From assembly GCA_046536775.1 (NCBI GenBank), contig JAWDMD010000026.1:1-6174 (forward strand): a stretch of DNA of 6,174 bases. The letters are read 5' to 3'. Source of the stretch: Candidatus Nanopusillus sp. Its GTDB lineage: Archaea; Nanobdellota; Nanobdellia; Nanobdellales; Nanobdellaceae. This document shows positions 1,517 through 6,151 of the stretch, piece after piece; within the stretch, counting starts at the first letter, position 1; the number at the start of each line of letters is the position of its first letter. The notes beneath the pieces were generated by a model that had not been told where the DNA came from, searched no databases, and saw only the letters and a program-made list of their open reading frames with translations. The translations under genes were made by a program, and so were the position numbers.

Positions 1517-1532
1517 ATATCTGCGCAGATAT
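1517..1532. repeat. Variant palindrome (P4) ATATCTGCGCAGATAT, a perfect 16 bp
   Basis: It shares the TGCGCA centre and the TATTAC right flank (1529-1535) with the main palindrome family. Its centre is 52.5 nt upstream of the ATG at 1472. The equivalent 24-bp footprint (1513-1536) ends 8 bp from the TATA box at 1497-1504. Confidence 0.6.
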
Positions 1533-1633: not shown

Positions 1634-2566
1634 TTGCTGCCGGGGATCCCGGAGGGGTCCGCGGTCGCGGTCGCGGAGGTGGACGGCGCATTAGTTGATG
1701 ACTCGGAGCGCCGCCGCGCCGCATTGGCGGCCGCCGGCGCGTCGCTCGACGCGCCGCCGTGGAGGCTGACGGGCGAGGCGCGCGCGAGGTTCCTCGAGGC
1801 GTACTACGCAGAGGAGGCGCTGCGCCACGATAAACCGGGCCCACTGCTCGCGAGGGCGCTACGCCGCCCGGAGGGCTCGCGCCTCATCGTGGTGACCTCG
1901 CGCCCAGAGCGCCTGAGGTCCGCCACGGAGGCGGAGCTCCGCGGGCTCGGCGCCGCGCCGGACGCGCTGATCATGGCCCCGCCCGGCACCGAGGACGACT
2001 GGCGCGAGCGCATGCTGGAGCTGCTGGCCGAGGAGTACGGGCTCGCGCTCGTGCTGGACCCCGACCCGTGGGTCAGGAGGGCGGCCGAGCGGCTCGGGGC
2101 CGAGGCGCCGAGGCCGCGAGGGCGCGCGCATATAAGGCCGCGCGGAGTCCTTGGCTCTTGTTGTACTTGTTGTTGTGCTTGTGTTTGTTTATATAGCACT
2201 TCCACAGAAACCCACCCAATGGCGCTCGTTCAGGTCCTCGAGGAGGCCCTGCGCAGCGGCGACGAGAGGGAGATCGAGAGGGCCGTGAAGGAGCTGAAGA
2301 AATGGCTGGACTGGTTCGGCCCCCGGTACTTCGGGCTGGCGGTACAGGACACTTGGATCGCGGCGCCGCCCGAGAGGCGCCAGATGATCGAGGAGATGGT
2401 GAAAGAGCTGGAGAGTGTGCATAAGGAGGCCGCTTGGTGGGCCCAATACTACATAAAGCGCGCCAAGGAGGCTGAGAAGAAGGCTGAGAAGGATGAGCGC
2501 TCCGGCGAAATGTCAGGGCAGGAAGAGGGCGGTAGGCGACATCCTGAAATGTGCGCGCGTGGCTAG
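1634..2566 (+). CDS. Composite stop-free ORF: a HAD-superfamily phosphatase-like module (to about 2107), a TG-rich island, then a helical 115-aa module
   Basis: Frame 2 is uninterrupted. The first canonical start beyond the divergent gene is TTG 1634, and the next is GTG 1679. The track ATG at 1352 overlaps the divergent gene's 5' end, TATA and palindrome, and its N-terminal extension (1352 to about 1535) is Arg/Pro-rich shadow-frame sequence. HAD-like blocks: AVAVAEVDGAL (EVDGAL = 1676-1693), LIVVTSRPE (1883-1909), LVLDPDP (2048-2068). The start is unresolved, and no in-frame stop occurs before TAG 2564-2566. Confidence 0.5.
   Translation: MLPGIPEGSAVAVAEVDGALVDDSERRRAALAAAGASLDAPPWRLTGEARARFLEAYYAEEALRHDKPGPLLARALRRPEGSRLIVVTSRPERLRSATEAELRGLGAAPDALIMAPPGTEDDWRERMLELLAEEYGLALVLDPDPWVRRAAERLGAEAPRPRGRAHIRPRGVLGSCCTCCCACVCLYSTSTETHPMALVQVLEEALRSGDEREIERAVKELKKWLDWFGPRYFGLAVQDTWIAAPPERRQMIEEMVKELESVHKEAAWWAQYYIKRAKEAEKKAEKDERSGEMSGQEEGGRRHPEMCARG
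2129..2218 (+). promoter_or_regulatory. AT/TG-rich promoter-like island inside the open frame: TATA-like CATATAAG (2129-2136), TG-rich tract (2151-2190), TATA-like TTTATATA (2188-2195)
   Basis: GC content drops sharply here. In frame it reads as eight TGT Cys codons, whereas the upstream module's Cys codons are TGC. TTTATATA lies 23 nt upstream of ATG 2219, matching the leaderless geometry. The T-rich runs (GTGTTTGTTT) could also act as an archaeal terminator for the upstream module. Confidence 0.5.
2219..2566 (+). CDS. Helical/coiled-coil hypothetical protein (115 aa), nested in frame within 1634..2566 and probably expressed independently
   Basis: ATG 2219 has its own TATA-like element at the standard distance. 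The translation is clearly protein-like: MALVQVLEEALRSGDEREIERAVKELKKWLDWFGPRYF...KRAKEAEKKAEKDE. GC3 is high. This call is an alternative to, or isoform of, the long call. Confidence 0.6.
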   Translation: MALVQVLEEALRSGDEREIERAVKELKKWLDWFGPRYFGLAVQDTWIAAPPERRQMIEEMVKELESVHKEAAWWAQYYIKRAKEAEKKAEKDERSGEMSGQEEGGRRHPEMCARG

Positions 2567-3623
2567 GGTGCAACGCGAGGTCGTCTTCGAGAGCCATAAC
2601 TGGTTCCACGAGAAATCTGAGATCACCTTTTACAACGAGTGCGATGAGGAGCTGGACGTCATATGTGTGGATAGGCGCGCCCTCAGCCTGAATCTGGGCG
2701 CACTCTTCGAGTATAAGTACGCGGCCGTCCTGCGGGCGTACGGTGAGGACGGCACGTGGCTTAACCTGCTGAGGAGCGCAGACCCGTGCCTGGAGGGCGG
2801 CGGCCCAGGGCACATATGCTTCAGTCTCCCGGCGATCAAGCTGAGACCCCATGAATACTACACCGTGCAGCTCATGTACGAGGGGTCGCCGCTCTCAATT
2901 GAGGAGCCCTCCGCGGTGGTGAAGCGCTACACGCGGCGGTCACTGCTTTCCGCGGTCAAGCCGTACAGGGACGTCCCCGTGCTCATGTGGAACTATCCGC
3001 CCGGAAGAGCTCCGAGTATAATGCCGCAGTCGCTGTACACCGTGTTCCGCATTAGGGAGGACTGGTTGGAGATCGACGAGGGGTGGGCCAGGAAGTCCTT
3101 AGAGGAGGGTGAAGGAGTGATGGGCAAGTTGAAGAGTAAGCTCGACGTGATCGCGCTCAGCAATCGCGCGCTCGGCTACCGCATGGAGATTCCTTCAAGC
3201 ACGGAAAAGCTGGAGCTAGAGGAATTAGGGCCCGTTATCCCGAGGCCAGACGCGCGGCCAGCGGAGAGATTTGCGGCATTATTATTTATGTGGGCGTGGT
3301 TATTGGAGGTACCATATTACATTACACTCAAGCTTAGGGTGAATTTATTGTACAGATTGCTCGCGGTTCTCGTTGAGATCCTAGGGTTTCTCACGGCGGC
3401 CCTCTCATTGGTCTTCATGTCCCTTGTGCTCTGGCGCGGACAACAATCGATGATCGGCGATGGCCTGCTCCTGCTGACCACACTCTTCATCATAGTGCTG
3501 GGCAACTACTTGACGCTACCCAAGGGCGGCCCGCTGAGGTACGGGCTACTCGGCGGCGCGCTGGCCGCGGCCGCAGCGTCTGTGGCGGGGCTCGCAGTCA
3601 TGATGTTGCTGCGTATGCTCTAA
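2493..3623 (+). CDS. Membrane protein (376 aa): soluble beta-rich N-domain of about 255 aa plus about 4 C-terminal TM helices
   Basis: It is a long ORF with natural composition. TM segments: FAALLFMWAWLLEVPYYITL, LLAVLVEILGFLTAALSLVFMSLVLW, GLLLLTTLFIIVLGNYLTL, YGLLGGALAAAAASVAGLAVMMLLRML (about nt 3270-3620). Start alternatives are ATG 2493 (74-nt overlap with the upstream ORF, and frame 3 has the higher GC3 across the overlap), GTG 2559, and GTG 2568 (2 nt after the upstream stop). I recognise no family. Confidence 0.75.
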   Translation: MSAPAKCQGRKRAVGDILKCARVARVQREVVFESHNWFHEKSEITFYNECDEELDVICVDRRALSLNLGALFEYKYAAVLRAYGEDGTWLNLLRSADPCLEGGGPGHICFSLPAIKLRPHEYYTVQLMYEGSPLSIEEPSAVVKRYTRRSLLSAVKPYRDVPVLMWNYPPGRAPSIMPQSLYTVFRIREDWLEIDEGWARKSLEEGEGVMGKLKSKLDVIALSNRALGYRMEIPSSTEKLELEELGPVIPRPDARPAERFAALLFMWAWLLEVPYYITLKLRVNLLYRLLAVLVEILGFLTAALSLVFMSLVLWRGQQSMIGDGLLLLTTLFIIVLGNYLTLPKGGPLRYGLLGGALAAAAASVAGLAVMMLLRML

Positions 3624-3739
3624 CCGGGGCTCGCGCGGGCGGTGAAAGTGAACGATATGACCGATCCATAGACTTAGCTATACCGAGGGAGCGTAAATCG
3701 ACGTCCCGATCGGGGGAGTTCGGGCGTAAGTATGAGCCT

Positions 3740-3892
3740 TCAGGCGGCCACACCGAGCACCGTCATCAGCGCGGCCCCCAGCGCGGCGGGCGCCCAGGCG
3801 AGGTCGTCGACCTCCCTGCTCCTCAGGTCCTGGTGGGCCGCCGCGGCGTAGCTCGCGGCCACGAGCGCCGTGCCGGCGAGCGCCGGGTCCAC
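3740..3892 (-). CDS. Unlisted small ORF, 50 aa, two hydrophobic helices with a charged loop: MDPALAGTALVAASYAAAAHQDLRSREVDDLAWAPAALGAALMTVLGVAA. Candidate helical-hairpin (VirB2/CedA1/TedC-style) pilin or small membrane protein
   Basis: I reverse-translated it by hand. GTG (rc of 3890-3892) to TGA (rc of 3740-3742) is 153 nt, and an in-frame TAG (rc of 3914-3916) lies 7 codons upstream, so GTG is the only possible start. Of 50 codons, 49 end in G/C. The start is preceded by CTTTTTAG (rc of 3914-3921), 3 nt, GCGGCCGCACG and 7 nt, the same cassette as the divergent pilin-like gene. The track ORF 3678..3914(-) over this region is an Arg/Gly shadow frame. Confidence 0.55.
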   Translation of the reverse strand: MDPALAGTALVAASYAAAAHQDLRSREVDDLAWAPAALGAALMTVLGVAA

Positions 3893-3913
3893 GCGCGCCC
3901 GTGCGGCCGCGCA

Positions 3914-3921
3914 CTAAAAAG
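3914..3921 (-). promoter_or_regulatory. TATA box (CTTTTTAG on the minus strand) for the 50-aa ORF
   Basis: It lies 21 nt upstream of the GTG at 3892 and 8 bp from the edge of the palindrome. Confidence 0.55.
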
Positions 3922-3929
3922 CGCCACGT

Positions 3930-3953
3930 GGTAATACTTGCGCAAGTATTACC
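3930..3953. repeat. Perfect 24-bp palindrome (P2) GGTAATACTTGCGCAAGTATTACC, the putative operator of a divergent promoter
   Basis: The reverse complement of GGTAATACTTGC is GCAAGTATTACC. It lies between two divergent TATA boxes, with gaps of 8 and 9 bp. It is an AT-rich island. Confidence 0.8.
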
Positions 3954-3962
3954 GGCGTTGCC

Positions 3963-3970
3963 CTTTTAAG
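3963..3970 (+). promoter_or_regulatory. TATA box CTTTTAAG for the pilin-like gene
   Basis: A 20-nt spacer (CCGCGGCCGCACGTGTCGCC) separates it from GTG 3991, implying a leaderless transcript. Confidence 0.65.
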
Positions 3971-3990
3971 CCGCGGCCGCACGTGTCGCC

Positions 3991-4992
3991 GTGAGGCGCA
4001 GGGCGGCCATATCCCAGATGCTCGGCACCCTGATACTGATCGCGATCGTGCTGGTCGCGGCCGTGCTGGTGTACCATGCCGGAATGTTTGCCGCGCAGCG
4101 CGCCTCCGGCGGCGCGGGGATCTCGGTGAGCGGCGCCTCCGTGGAGGCGTTCCCCGGCGGCGCGTTCGTGACGCTCACGGTCACGAACACCGGGAGCGCG
4201 CCCGGGTACGTCTCGGTGGCGCTCTACCAGGGAGGGTCGCGGGTCTTCTGGGCGCCGGGCGCGCCCGGGCTGCTGTACCAGATATACACGAACCCGAACA
4301 TAATGTGGGACGAGCCGCCCGAGTCGCTCGTGTACTCGGCCCCGCTGGCCCCCGGCAGCTCCTTCCAGTACGACGGCACCTGGAGCGCGCCGGTCGGGCC
4401 CTGGACCACGCCCGGCGCCGGGTCGGCGCAGGACGTGAACGGGCAGACCCAGCCCAACGTGATAGACAACATGCAGTATGAGTACACGGGCGGCGCGCCC
4501 TTCCCGAACCCGCCCGTCTCCGCCCCCGGGAACGAGTTCGCGATCAAGGAGATAGGGTACATGGTGGTGACCCAGCCCACCGTGTTCTACGTGGACATAG
4601 ACGACGGCGGGGCGCTGGGCGCGATCCCCTACAGCCCCGGCGTTTTCACTCAGGAGACCTCGTGGCTCGGGGGGACCTCCAACCCCGCGAACCTGATAAG
4701 CGCGTGGTACGGCCAGCCCGCGACTGTACACTCCTCGGGCACGGTGCAGCCCGGCACCTACCTCGTGGAGTACGACTACTTCCAGTTCGGCGGCGGCGCC
4801 TACTGGAGCCTGTGGTCGAGCGCGCCGGTGTATTACTACCACCCGGTGCTCCTGTACCCCGGGCAGTCCGCGATTCTCAACTACACGCTCGCGGCGCAGC
4901 TGCAGCCCGGCTCGCAGTGCACGGTCTCGGCGACCATAACAACGCCGGCCGGGACCGCCACCGCATCCGCGACCGTCACGGTCGCGCCTTGA
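3991..4992 (+). CDS. Type IV pilin-like protein (archaeal class III signal peptide) with a beta-sandwich region, a PA14-like carbohydrate-binding domain and a Thr/Ala-rich C-terminal beta domain (333 aa)
   Basis: The N-terminus MRRRAAISQMLGTLILIAIVLVAAVLVY matches the archaeal prepilin pattern: basic residues, small residue, then ISxxxGTLxLIAIxxV. PA14-like blocks lie at aa ~92-277 (nt 4264-4821): GLLYQIY, NEFAIKEIGYMVVTQPTVFYVDIDDGGAL, VQPGTYLVEYDYFQFGGGAYWSLWSS. GC3 is high, and every overlapping track ORF is a shadow frame. Confidence 0.85.
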   Translation: MRRRAAISQMLGTLILIAIVLVAAVLVYHAGMFAAQRASGGAGISVSGASVEAFPGGAFVTLTVTNTGSAPGYVSVALYQGGSRVFWAPGAPGLLYQIYTNPNIMWDEPPESLVYSAPLAPGSSFQYDGTWSAPVGPWTTPGAGSAQDVNGQTQPNVIDNMQYEYTGGAPFPNPPVSAPGNEFAIKEIGYMVVTQPTVFYVDIDDGGALGAIPYSPGVFTQETSWLGGTSNPANLISAWYGQPATVHSSGTVQPGTYLVEYDYFQFGGGAYWSLWSSAPVYYYHPVLLYPGQSAILNYTLAAQLQPGSQCTVSATITTPAGTATASATVTVAP

Positions 4993-4995
4993 GCA

Positions 4996-5658
4996 TCACG
5001 TGAGAGCCGCCGCCAGCTTCAGCACCATGTCCACCGCCCACATGTGCTCCGGTGGGGCGAGCACGGGTATCCGGTCGACATTGGCCATGAGCTCTCCCAG
5101 GGTCCACTCGAAGGCCTCGTCATCCGCGCGGCCGTCGAGGCGCGCGACTAAGATGGCCGCGTGCCTCGCCAGGGCCGAGAGGACCTCCATTGGGAAATAT
5201 TGGTCCTCGAGTCCGCCCGCCCGGTCGGCGACCATCTCGTACTCGCGCATCAGCGCGTGGTAGTACACGTAGAGATTGGTGTTCTCGGCGAGGTCCGGAA
5301 AGCGCTCGTCCAGATAGCGCAGGAACTCCCCACGCCTCTCCGCCAGGGCCTCCGCCTGCCTCCCCGCGAACTCGCGGAGGATCTCCCACTGCTCCCCCTC
5401 GCCCAGCCGCGAGAACAGCCGGATGAGCTCCGCGAGCTCCGGGTCCGCCCTCCCCAAGGCGTCCTCCAGGCCCGCGAGCTCCGGCCCCTCCGGGGAGCCG
5501 AGCTCCCAGCGCACGAGGCCGACCAGCGCGTCGACCACCTTATCCACCGGGATCCCCGCGCCCACCCCGCGGGCGGGGTGGGACCTCTCGCGGATCTCGC
5601 GCGCCGGCAGGATCTCCAGCGCGCCCGCCAGCGGTGAGGGACTCGCGCCCATGTCCAC
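4996..5658 (-). CDS. Hypothetical acidic helical protein (220 aa)
   Basis: GTG at 5658 (an alternative ATG lies at 5652) is preceded on the minus strand by TATA CTTATATT (rc of 5680-5687) with a 21-nt spacer, and by palindrome P3 8 bp further upstream. Composition is natural and GC3 is high. It converges on the pilin-like gene with a 3-bp gap. I recognise no family. Confidence 0.75.
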   Translation of the reverse strand: MDMGASPSPLAGALEILPAREIRERSHPARGVGAGIPVDKVVDALVGLVRWELGSPEGPELAGLEDALGRADPELAELIRLFSRLGEGEQWEILREFAGRQAEALAERRGEFLRYLDERFPDLAENTNLYVYYHALMREYEMVADRAGGLEDQYFPMEVLSALARHAAILVARLDGRADDEAFEWTLGELMANVDRIPVLAPPEHMWAVDMVLKLAAALT

Positions 5659-5679: not shown

Positions 5680-5687
5680 AATATAAG
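5680..5687 (-). promoter_or_regulatory. TATA box (CTTATATT on the minus strand) for the 4996..5658 gene
   Basis: It lies 21 nt upstream of the GTG at 5658 and 8 bp (5688-5695) from palindrome P3. Confidence 0.6.
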
Positions 5688-5695
5688 ATCGGTGC

Positions 5696-5717
5696 GTAAT
5701 ACTTGCGCAAGTATTAC
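5696..5717. repeat. Perfect 22-bp palindrome (P3) GTAATACTTGCGCAAGTATTAC
   Basis: It is the same sequence as P2 without the outermost base pair. Its centre is 48.5 nt upstream of the GTG at 5658. Its right arm contains the TAA stop (rc of 5714-5716) of the 5714..6103 gene. Confidence 0.8.
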
Positions 5718-6103
5718 CGCGCGCGGCCTCGCCAGGTCGGCGGGGGCGCGAGGCGCGGCGCCAGCCACACCGCGAAGACGTTGTTCACAACGACCGCGCC
5801 GTTGAGTATGATGAGCGCGGCCGCGGCGCCGTGGAACAGCGGGATGATGCGCGGCCGGGCGAGCGCCCTCGCGTATATGTAGCGGAGCGCGAGCGTGAAT
5901 ATCAGGACCCTCACGAGCGCGTCCGCGGCGAGCCCCCCGGCGAGCCCCAGCGCGCCGATGAGCGAGGCGGTCACGGGGTCGCCCTCCGCGACCGGCAGGC
6001 TCGGGTCACTCAGCGCGAGGTACGTGAGCAGGACGTCGGCGGCCACTAGGAGGTCCGCGGCCAGCGCGGCCGCGATCAGGGAGCGGCGCGTGGGCGGCCT
6101 CAC
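5714..6103 (-). CDS. Small polytopic membrane protein (129 aa), DUF5658-like
   Basis: GTG at 6103 lies 20 nt downstream (minus strand) of CTTTTAAG (rc of 6124-6131). Hydrophobic segments: LIAAALAADLLVAADVLLTYLAL, LIGALGLAGGLAADALV, IIPLFHGAAAALIILNGAVVVNNVFAVWL. The pattern D-x2-LT-x2-AL ... EGDP resembles the D..LT...L...E.NP signature that I recall for the DUF5658 family. That is a memory-based assignment and has not been searched. Confidence 0.7.
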   Translation of the reverse strand: MRPPTRRSLIAAALAADLLVAADVLLTYLALSDPSLPVAEGDPVTASLIGALGLAGGLAADALVRVLIFTLALRYIYARALARPRIIPLFHGAAAALIILNGAVVVNNVFAVWLAPRLAPPPTWRGRAR

Positions 6104-6123
6104 GCGCGCGCGTGGTGGGGCGC

Positions 6124-6131
6124 CTTAAAAG
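6124..6131. promoter_or_regulatory. Quasi-symmetric TATA box CTTAAAAG, placed to serve both divergent genes
   Basis: Exactly 20 nt separate it from the GTG at 6103 (minus strand) and from the GTG at 6152 (plus strand). The plus-side spacer carries GCGGGCGCACG + 7 nt + GTG, matching the cassette at 3963-3993. Confidence 0.55.
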
Positions 6132-6151
6132 CCGCGGGCGCACGCTGGGCC

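Follow-up and report, generated by a model that had tools for sequence, protein, structure and literature searches.

Back-to-back promoter units on a shared palindrome, a probable operator, in a putative archaeal conjugative-type element

The region between positions 3890 and 3993 of a 6174-bp stretch of metagenomic DNA (the window, meaning the whole stretch that was analyzed) separates a 50-amino-acid (aa) open reading frame (ORF), here called ORF50, from a divergently oriented type IV pilin-like gene. We found that a standard promoter unit occurs twice in this control region, the two copies standing back to back on one perfect palindrome and having been inherited independently; the palindrome recurs throughout a family of related contigs. 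The sequence comparison points to a genuine two-promoter control region with a probable shared operator, and the small ORF is probably real. On balance, we favor the explanation that the palindrome is an element-wide operator just upstream of TATA boxes lacking a canonical B recognition element (BRE), and that it doubles as a recombination junction. The window is the complete length of a contig in a metagenome-assembled genome labelled Candidatus Nanopusillus; its GC content is 69%, its proteins are nearest to those of Conexivisphaera, and the contig was probably binned incorrectly. The window includes the gene for the C-terminal part of a VirB4/TraC-like ATPase and is probably part of a conjugative-type mobile element of high GC content with a Conexivisphaera-like host.

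The control region and its palindrome family

All coordinates that an earlier note on this DNA had given for 3890-3993 proved correct when positions 3600-4300 were read again. The elements are as follows:

3930-3953, no strand: perfect 24-bp palindrome GGTAATACTTGC/GCAAGTATTACC, centre at 3941/3942; from sequence reading, the predicted regulator site common to both promoters
3963-3970, plus strand: TATA box CTTTTAAG of the pilin-like gene promoter, invariant in five orthologous loci and fitting the family consensus C-TT(A/T)(A/T)A-GG
3914-3921, minus strand: TATA box of the ORF50 promoter, ctaaaaag (reverse complement CTTTTTAG), present as CTTTTAAC in the related loci L041, L043 and L044
3973-3983, plus strand: 11-mer GCGGCCGCACG of the right arm, holding the GCACG of a GGCACG-like promoter-proximal element (sequence reading)
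3900-3910, minus strand: the same 11-mer GCGGCCGCACG, here the promoter-proximal element of the left arm, whose orthologues in L041, L043 and L044 all carry GCGGCCGCAC unchanged

The GTG start codons at 3892 (minus strand) and 3991 (plus strand) each lie 7 nucleotides (nt) from their 11-mer. Between palindrome and TATA box, the left arm has 8 nt and the right arm 9 nt, while the linkers between TATA box and 11-mer measure 3 and 2 nt, respectively; since these differences cancel, both start codons are found 49.5 nt from the palindrome centre. The palindrome is beyond chance, as its 22-mer has two exact matches in the window compared to none in 200 shuffles. The 11-mer by itself is weak evidence in DNA of 70% GC: with one mismatch allowed, four matches were counted in the window against 1.3 expected, and 9 of 200 shuffles also reached four. 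Outside the palindrome, approximately 24 of 41 aligned positions of the two arms agree by hand count, all of them inside the TATA box and the 11-mer, and the left and right spacers are without any common sequence. The earlier note had described the whole 104 bp as one large imperfect inverted repeat. This is overstated, given the unlike spacers. It had also proposed two leaderless promoters around one dimer site, and both arms do have the look of archaeal promoters, with the dyad as the obvious candidate site for a dimeric regulator. The distance from the TATA centre to the first base of the GTG is 24.5 nt in the right arm and 25.5 nt in the left arm, in line with the approximately 25-27 nt of archaeal promoters and found again in other promoters of the family, and both promoters probably drive leaderless messages.

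Three further copies of the palindrome were located in the window:

5694-5719, no strand: second perfect copy, holding the stop codon of a 129-aa gene
1513-1536, no strand: variant palindrome with the core ATATCTGCGCAGATAT
820-843, no strand: hybrid or degenerate copy, 3' of the stop codon of the VirB4-like ATPase

The copy at 5694-5719 is followed, after 8 nt, by the TATA box CTTATATT (reverse complement of 5680-5687) of a 220-aa minus-strand gene starting at 5658. Likewise, 8 nt separate the palindrome at 1513-1536 from the TATA box TTAAAAGG (reverse complement of 1497-1504) of a 185-aa minus-strand gene at 915-1472. The orthologues of the latter site (L001 1431, L014 9365, L021 4917 and L034 1989) are two-sided with a conserved promoter pair, whereas the second-side promoter has been deleted in the window. 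Searches beyond the window found the exact palindrome 20-mer in 34 metagenomic contigs with 62-74% GC and at most four exact copies per contig. When two mismatches were permitted in the 16-bp core, 73 distinct sites were counted in approximately 230 kb of related metagenomic contigs. An 18-mer of the palindrome had no match in viral contigs, and the 20-mer matched only twice in 185,579 reference genomes, both times in bacteria and at about chance expectation, with no archaeal match, Conexivisphaera included. At least one promoter-type arm is attached to 50 of the 73 sites, and eight sites carry two.

The promoter unit was derived by orienting each flank of each palindrome outward. Its order is the palindrome, a C/G spacer of 7-10 nt, C-TT(A/T)(A/T)A-GG, five variable nt, GGCACG, approximately 8 nt and the start codon. 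Among 58 promoter-type arms, 36 have their A/T run starting at a distance of 7-10 nt from the 24-bp palindrome, compared to 4.4 expected from the base rate, and a GCAC-type element follows approximately 9-10 nt past the TATA run in 45. The spacers comprise 49 different 8-mers in these 58 arms; it is thus the spacer length that is conserved and not the spacer sequence. Across the family promoters, the distance between the 16-bp core and the start codon is most commonly 41 nt, equal to 49.5 nt from the centre. This value was seen for genes unrelated to each other, among them those for the pilin, a giant adhesin-like protein and a 74-aa protein, as well as ORF50. The equal distances and the shared 11-mer in the window are therefore explained by a family-wide promoter geometry. 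BRE positions -6 to -1 are made up of C/G and are nearly devoid of A; of 26 arms, 5 have A at -3 and 7 have G at -6. As the usual archaeal preference is for G at -6 and A at -3 (PMC11065993), the family promoters have no purine-rich BRE. For the host promoters, the comparison covered 16 kb of chromosomal sequence only and gave no match to the promoter module, which is too little to inform further.

Variation within the palindrome was examined at 61 variant sites. Symmetry is broken in 59 of them, at one to four pairs and without compensation, while two are fully symmetric, including the one in the window (1517-1532). In most variant sites, the changes are confined to one of the halves, and hybrids between the half-site types ATACTTGC and ATATC(A/T)GC are common. 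Such dyad symmetry with independently varying half-sites fits recognition of half-sites by a protein and speaks against a hairpin.

Two side observations concern the surroundings of the palindromes. Mechanical ORF lists translate the palindrome itself, as MRKYY at a start or as VILAQVL in read-through (3930-3953, 5694-5719 and related loci), and several predicted proteins thereby receive spurious N- or C-terminal extensions. Moreover, a conserved terminator-type module, GGAGCTCCCGCTGGGG...GAAAAGGGGGTCA, lies next to approximately 14-19 sites, at 844-914 in the window and at many other loci; read on the opposite strand, it is the stop codon and T-rich run of a converging gene.

Separate inheritance of the two arms and the genes they precede

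The pilin promoter was aligned across five loci and is near-invariant from the palindrome into the coding region. To the left of this palindrome, three unrelated sequences are found among the aligned loci:

Window only: the ORF50 arm
L001, L021 and also L015: the 3' end of a PD-(D/E)XK/kinase-like gene
L014 and L032: a terminator-type module with a T-run

Conversely, the ORF50 arm, consisting of palindrome, TATA box, GCGGCCGCAC, GTG and ORF, is conserved in L043, L044 and L041, where the opposite side of the palindrome is occupied by a long non-promoter stretch (L043 and L044) or by the upstream region of a gene termed gene B (L041). Related loci hence keep the right arm without the left, the very outcome that the earlier note had named as refuting, and the idea of the 104-bp region as a unit is thus not supported. 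Nor is its argument that symmetry marks two products acting together: dozens of unrelated genes have this palindrome in front of them, and as the arms assort independently, their mirror symmetry does not show cooperation. While the family typically has one site shared by divergent promoters where such pairs occur, the specific combination of genes in the window is not typical. A local inverted duplication was considered as the origin of the arms and rejected, since the orthologues of each arm already carry GCGGCCGCAC(G).

Most insertions and deletions between the related contigs end at palindromes, and five cases are at hand. The copy at 820-843 of the window is flanked on the left as L001 is at its site 260, and on the right as L001 is at its site 729, which identifies this copy as the junction left by the loss of a 135-aa gene cassette. 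The 220-aa gene, located between the sites at 3750 and 4499 in L001, is missing from L021, where one palindrome was kept. L014 has an extra 74-aa gene between its sites at 7751 and 8105, at a position where L001 has a single site. An insertion of 1.8 kb and lower GC content in the window (2129-3929) abuts the palindrome at 3930. Finally, the ORF50 cassette, which occurs in three different neighborhoods, is bounded by the full palindrome and by a half-site remnant:

3726-3734, minus strand: half-site remnant, TACTTAC on the minus strand, at the distal end of the ORF50 cassette; in L041, L043 and L044, the half-site region from which it remains precedes a gene for a ribbon-helix-helix (RHH) protein

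The RHH gene follows ORF50 in these three loci. Homology of the window to L043 ends at 3726-3734, inside the first half-site-like word of the RHH promoter, and position 3726 is also where the window ceases to resemble the region downstream of a 376-aa gene in L039-L042. The TAA within the palindrome provides the stop codon of several genes. As in integrons, there are cassettes bounded by a repeated palindrome. Unlike integron cassettes, most of them carry their own promoter, and a tblastn search of the palindrome loci for a recombinase, with the L002 integrase as the single query and without a systematic domain scan, was negative.

The insert at 2129-3726 has a GC content of 53-63%, compared to approximately 69% otherwise, and holds gene B (approximately 2218-2490) and a gene for a 376-aa membrane protein. 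Homologues on the lower-GC contigs L039-L042 suggest that it was acquired from a different element. The PD-(D/E)XK/kinase-like gene, which encodes 442 aa in L001 and L015, is represented in the window at 1540-2125 by a copy that has lost its promoter, TTG start and approximately 630 nt of nuclease-domain DNA and has probably decayed. The remnant reads in frame into the next gene, which produces a spurious 404-aa ORF at 1352-2566.

The two genes driven from the control region are:

3740-3892, minus strand: ORF50, 50 aa, probably leaderless, homologous to approximately 45 N-terminal residues of the A24 prepilin peptidase of Conexivisphaera (first helix and first catalytic Asp motif QDLRSREV)
3991-4992, plus strand: probably leaderless gene with a GTG start for a type IV pilin-like protein of 333 aa, whose N-terminus (MRRRAAISQMLGTLILIAIV) resembles a class III signal peptide

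ORF50 is probably a real coding gene, as the earlier note had supposed from the symmetry. Its third-position GC content is 0.96-0.98, and its values by codon position (0.80/0.59/0.96) resemble those of confirmed genes in the window. Compared to L043, there are 4, 5 and 13 differences in codon positions 1, 2 and 3, with 12.5 synonymous and 9.5 non-synonymous differences and a ratio of non-synonymous to synonymous substitution rates (dN/dS) of 0.24. Insertions and deletions (9 and 90 nt) are in frame. An exhaustive profile search detected the homologues P0034 (55 aa, 87% identity), P0035 and P0036 (68% identity there), which have been annotated as proteins elsewhere. Of these, P0036 represents the A24 prepilin peptidase encoded on the Conexivisphaera chromosome: housekeeping genes adjoin it, its NCBI name agrees, and it scores 27.4 bits against Pfam Peptidase_A24 (cut-off 26.5). 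ORF50 is 71% identical to residues 9-50 of P0036 (42 aa, E = 3e-18) and has the first catalytic Asp motif, HQDLRSREVDD compared to YQDLRSREVED of P0036. The second, GxGD-type Asp motif (SGDV, near residue 80 of P0036) and the further transmembrane helices are absent, the protein ending at residue 50, and Pfam gave no match for ORF50 itself. Judged by its sequence, ORF50 is thus a conserved stand-alone homologue of an N-terminal peptidase fragment and not an enzyme. The DNA of ORF50 and of the Conexivisphaera peptidase gene is approximately 75% identical with no identical stretch longer than approximately 14 nt; an attachment-site (att) origin of ORF50 is possible but without support, and no att core is evident. 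DNA repeats had suggested that ORF50 might be a truncated paralogue of the neighboring 129-aa gene, which was dismissed as the proteins have no similarity.

With regards to the pilin-like gene, an in-frame stop at 3967-3969 makes GTG 3991 the first possible start. Gene callers begin the 324-aa homologues at ATG 4018, 27 nt downstream. However, codons 2-9 differ among the five loci by four distinct synonymous third-position changes and one Ile/Val change, and this conservation at codon level places the translation start at 3991 rather than at 4018. The protein scores 18.4 bits against TIGR02537, under the cut-off of 20, and matches UpsA over residues 5-71 with E = 9e-5, far under the UpsA cut-off. 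NCBI names one homologue as containing an archaellin/type IV pilin N-terminal domain, and the protein is 58% identical to C. calida NAS2_1026; an exact look-up of the 333 aa gave no match. The PA14 domain previously attributed to it was found neither in Pfam at E up to 0.1 nor in NCBIfam. Its middle part (4280-4851) is replaced or highly diverged in L014, L021, L030 and L032, while the ends are approximately 90% identical there, which describes a hypervariable middle domain.

Candidate regulator, proposed mechanism and alternatives

A small RHH gene is present in 10 related loci (Pfam RHH_1, 23.2 bits, cut-off 20.5). Its promoter is of two kinds. Six loci have a full half-site (GTAATACTTGC or nearly so) located downstream of the TATA box and ahead of the start codon, whereas four have a variant palindrome 7 nt upstream of the TATA box. 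Outside full-length sites, half-sites were found in nine contexts, of which five are hybrid palindromes and four are RHH promoters. All four isolated half-sites (TAATACTTGC) are placed between the TATA box and the start of the RHH gene, and nowhere else does a half-site stand alone. The RHH promoters with a full half-site, often together with a partial second one, include:

L041: 1186-1215
L043: 500-530
L013: 300-345
L029: 7640-7680

This confinement of isolated half-sites to RHH promoters makes the RHH protein the leading candidate binder, with the pattern of an autoregulated repressor.

From the arrangement of sites, we infer a mechanism in which an element-encoded dimeric regulator, for which the RHH protein is the candidate, would bind the palindrome at about -61 to -38 from the start. 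The bound site would lie directly upstream of the place where TFB and TBP would assemble on a TATA box without a canonical BRE. The regulator would set the activity of whichever promoter adjoins either side, resulting in element-wide co-regulation, and where two units sit on one site, as at 3941, one bound complex could act on both. The upstream position and the missing BRE would fit recruitment of factors and thus activation; blocking of TFB would also be possible. With a palindrome at most gene boundaries, recombination between copies could add, delete and swap cassettes, and such shuffling may have put the peptidase-fragment cassette against the pilin promoter, which would account for the mirror symmetry.

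Several observations weigh against an element-wide operator that doubles as a junction. No promoter-type arm is attached to 23 of the 73 sites, which lie between convergent genes or at 3' ends, and an operator there has no obvious target unless these copies are leftovers of recombination or act as roadblocks. Some promoter arms have longer gaps of 15-24 nt. The constant distance could in part reflect palindrome and promoter being inherited as one unit; the diverse spacers argue against a recent copying of this unit. The RHH gene is found neither in the window nor in its closest relatives L001, L014, L015 and L021, which is not decisive for contig fragments. Moreover, the related contigs encode rival DNA-binding candidates, namely AbrB-like proteins, a ParB-HTH-methylase fusion and a TFB homologue, and none of these genes is present in the window (an incomplete contig). 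The TFIIB/TFB homologue, with a zinc ribbon and two cyclin repeats (Pfam TFIIB, E = 8e-25), is encoded in L007 (8699-9640), L027 (12756-13697) and L016, and such an element-borne TFB could explain BRE-less promoters with a GGCACG element. The fusion of ParB_N, HTH_ParB and an MT-A70 methyltransferase is encoded in L014 (1156-2358) and L028 (1171-2472), where its stop codon abuts a palindrome, and it belongs to an element closely related to the window.

Among the alternatives, the palindrome may mainly be a recombination site at cassette boundaries, either as the target of a site-specific recombinase or as a homologous repeat of 24-30 bp, and the TATA distance would then be fixed only because palindrome and promoter travel as one cassette end. 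Most junctions of insertions and deletions do fall within a few nt of a palindrome, genes often stop in it, the ORF50 cassette appears in three neighborhoods, and sites exist between convergent genes. However, the integrase query revealed no recombinase, the spacer keeps its length despite differing sequence and half-sites occur in the RHH promoter, the latter two pointing to transcription; besides, recombination at a shared regulatory repeat requires no dedicated function. We therefore regard a mainly recombinational role as rather doubtful. KorB of IncP-1 plasmids also has dispersed palindromic sites, some adjoining promoters and others far away from them. Modelled on this protein, the palindromes could be centromere-like or silencing sites of a ParB-family protein, considering the methylase fusion in L014 and L028, a weaker ParB_N-like protein in L007 and L027 and the dispersal of the sites, some of them without a promoter. 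Such a role is unlikely in our view, since the only clear homologue of ParB is fused to a methylase, and such fusions usually have no link to partition, no ParA-type partner was noticed (no search was aimed at one) and the isolated half-sites point to the RHH protein.

The exact symmetry could alternatively indicate a dedicated, co-evolved bidirectional switch, with one dimer co-regulating the pilin and the peptidase-derived protein for joint pilin processing. Pilins of this kind are processed by prepilin peptidases, and ORF50 is indeed derived from one of these enzymes; its neighbor has a pilin-type N-terminus, and ORF50 is under purifying selection. Still, the pairing was seen in this contig only: four other pilin loci are without the left arm and three ORF50 loci are without the pilin gene. 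Together with the end of ORF50 before the second catalytic Asp motif and the presence of the same operator in front of many unrelated genes, the locus comparison appears to have largely refuted this switch, which we consider very unlikely. Lowest in probability, and in effect rejected, is a nucleic-acid hairpin, whether as a 3' stem-loop or terminator of the transcript, as a repetitive extragenic palindromic (REP)-like element or as a cruciform. A perfect 24-bp inverted repeat, often at gene 3' ends and with two perfectly symmetric variants, might suggest one. The lack of compensation in 59 of 61 variant sites and the common half-site hybrids contradict it, however, as does the position of the T-rich terminator-type motif, which is 40-50 nt off, no T-run adjoining the palindrome. 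Furthermore, at divergent promoters such as 3941, the site is transcribed from neither promoter, and Rfam returned no match for the window at the gathering score.

Building on the element-wide operator, a more far-reaching possibility can tentatively be formulated, namely a modular cassette system in an undescribed family of archaeal conjugative-type elements, in which each cassette of promoter, gene and terminator would be bounded by the predicted RHH site. It would combine features of integron cassettes with those of phage promoter-stem-loop repeats. Within such a system, the 5' part of the prepilin-peptidase gene of the host would have been retained on purpose as ORF50, and it could serve as the element-borne half of an integration site or as a small protein interfering with host pilin processing.

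Related systems and significance of the finding

The related contigs add to the VirB4-like ATPase several proteins with a pilin-type N-terminus, a membrane protein of 624-636 aa and the RHH, AbrB-like, ParB-HTH-methylase and TFIIB/TFB proteins. Pfam and PHROGs assigned no family to any window protein at the curated cut-off, and our literature search returned no description of mobile elements of Conexivisphaera or Conexivisphaerales. To our knowledge, transcription control in archaeal plasmids and conjugative elements beyond the Sulfolobales is almost unknown. One further divergent promoter of the window offers a comparison:

6103-6151, divergent: compact promoter without palindrome and with a single TATA box, CTTAAAAG (6124-6131), conserved in six related loci

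Its TATA box lies midway between GTG 6103 (minus strand, the 129-aa membrane protein) and GTG 6151 (plus strand, a gene leaving the contig), with the starts 47 nt apart and a proximal element GCGGGCGCACG at 6134-6144. Bidirectional transcription in Pyrococcus furiosus starts symmetrically around the promoter elements, approximately 49-50 bp apart on one TATA box (PMC6640164). The promoter at 6103/6151 fits this single-TATA mechanism; the region at 3890-3993 does not, as its palindrome is flanked by two separate TATA boxes at a distance of 49 bp.

Among described systems, the Sulfolobales viruses (SIRV2 and others, with Aca8-type control) come closest, where many single early genes have a regulatory sequence around the core promoter in common, and inverted repeats overlapping the BRE of some archaeal viruses have been read as repressor sites (PMC11065993). 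Both systems have many unrelated, mostly single-gene units with the same regulatory sequence and a near-identical core promoter, and the motif is also found at the gene of the regulator itself, here the candidate RHH gene. Unlike the viral promoters with their strong purine-rich BRE, the present family has C/G at the BRE positions, a perfect 24-bp palindrome at a fixed upstream distance and GGCACG downstream of the TATA box. It also differs in its setting, a VirB4-like conjugative element of approximately 69% GC with a Conexivisphaera-like host.

Other parallels are found among well-known regulators. Ptr2 of Methanocaldococcus, TFB-RF1 of Pyrococcus and TrmBL1 at its upstream sites are activators acting just upstream of the BRE/TATA; they are winged helix-turn-helix or Lrp-type chromosomal regulators with few targets. 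A dyad site directly upstream of a promoter with weak or absent BRE is common to both, which would fit recruitment of TBP or TFB, whereas the present candidate, an RHH protein, is encoded by a mobile element and would have dozens of targets. Among plasmids, global regulators include KorB of RK2, a member of the ParB family, and the omega repressor of pSM19035, an RHH protein with heptad repeats in direct or inverted orientation as its sites. Again, short repeats occur at many promoters of the element, including that of the candidate itself, as paired or single half-sites and in part far from promoters. In contrast to these bacterial cases, in which sigma-70 promoters are repressed, the sites described here lie upstream of the TATA box of archaeal promoters. 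Lastly, the PeSLs of T4-type phages are promoter-plus-stem-loop repeats at cassette boundaries, with early promoters and a transcribed stem-loop. They share with our family a promoter-associated palindromic repeat that flanks small variable genes and coincides with gene gain, loss and shuffling. Different from the PeSLs, the variant sites here give no sign of RNA structure.

The arrangement would be a case of element-wide operators at archaeal promoters, and the cassette reading and the peptidase fragment are most worth following up. A 50-aa gene that would otherwise be invisible can now be annotated as a prepilin-peptidase fragment, and for annotation in general, striking promoter symmetry does not mark a functional gene pair. 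The family is a clear example of regulatory repeats that serve as breakpoints of gene shuffling. If the cassette system holds true, the same site would wire new cassettes into the transcription of the element and provide the crossover point. With one 24-bp site at a fixed position and a short list of candidate binders, including a TFB homologue, the palindrome family represents a compact and testable regulon, and its study may reveal the way in which the basal transcription machinery of the host is taken over by an archaeal element.

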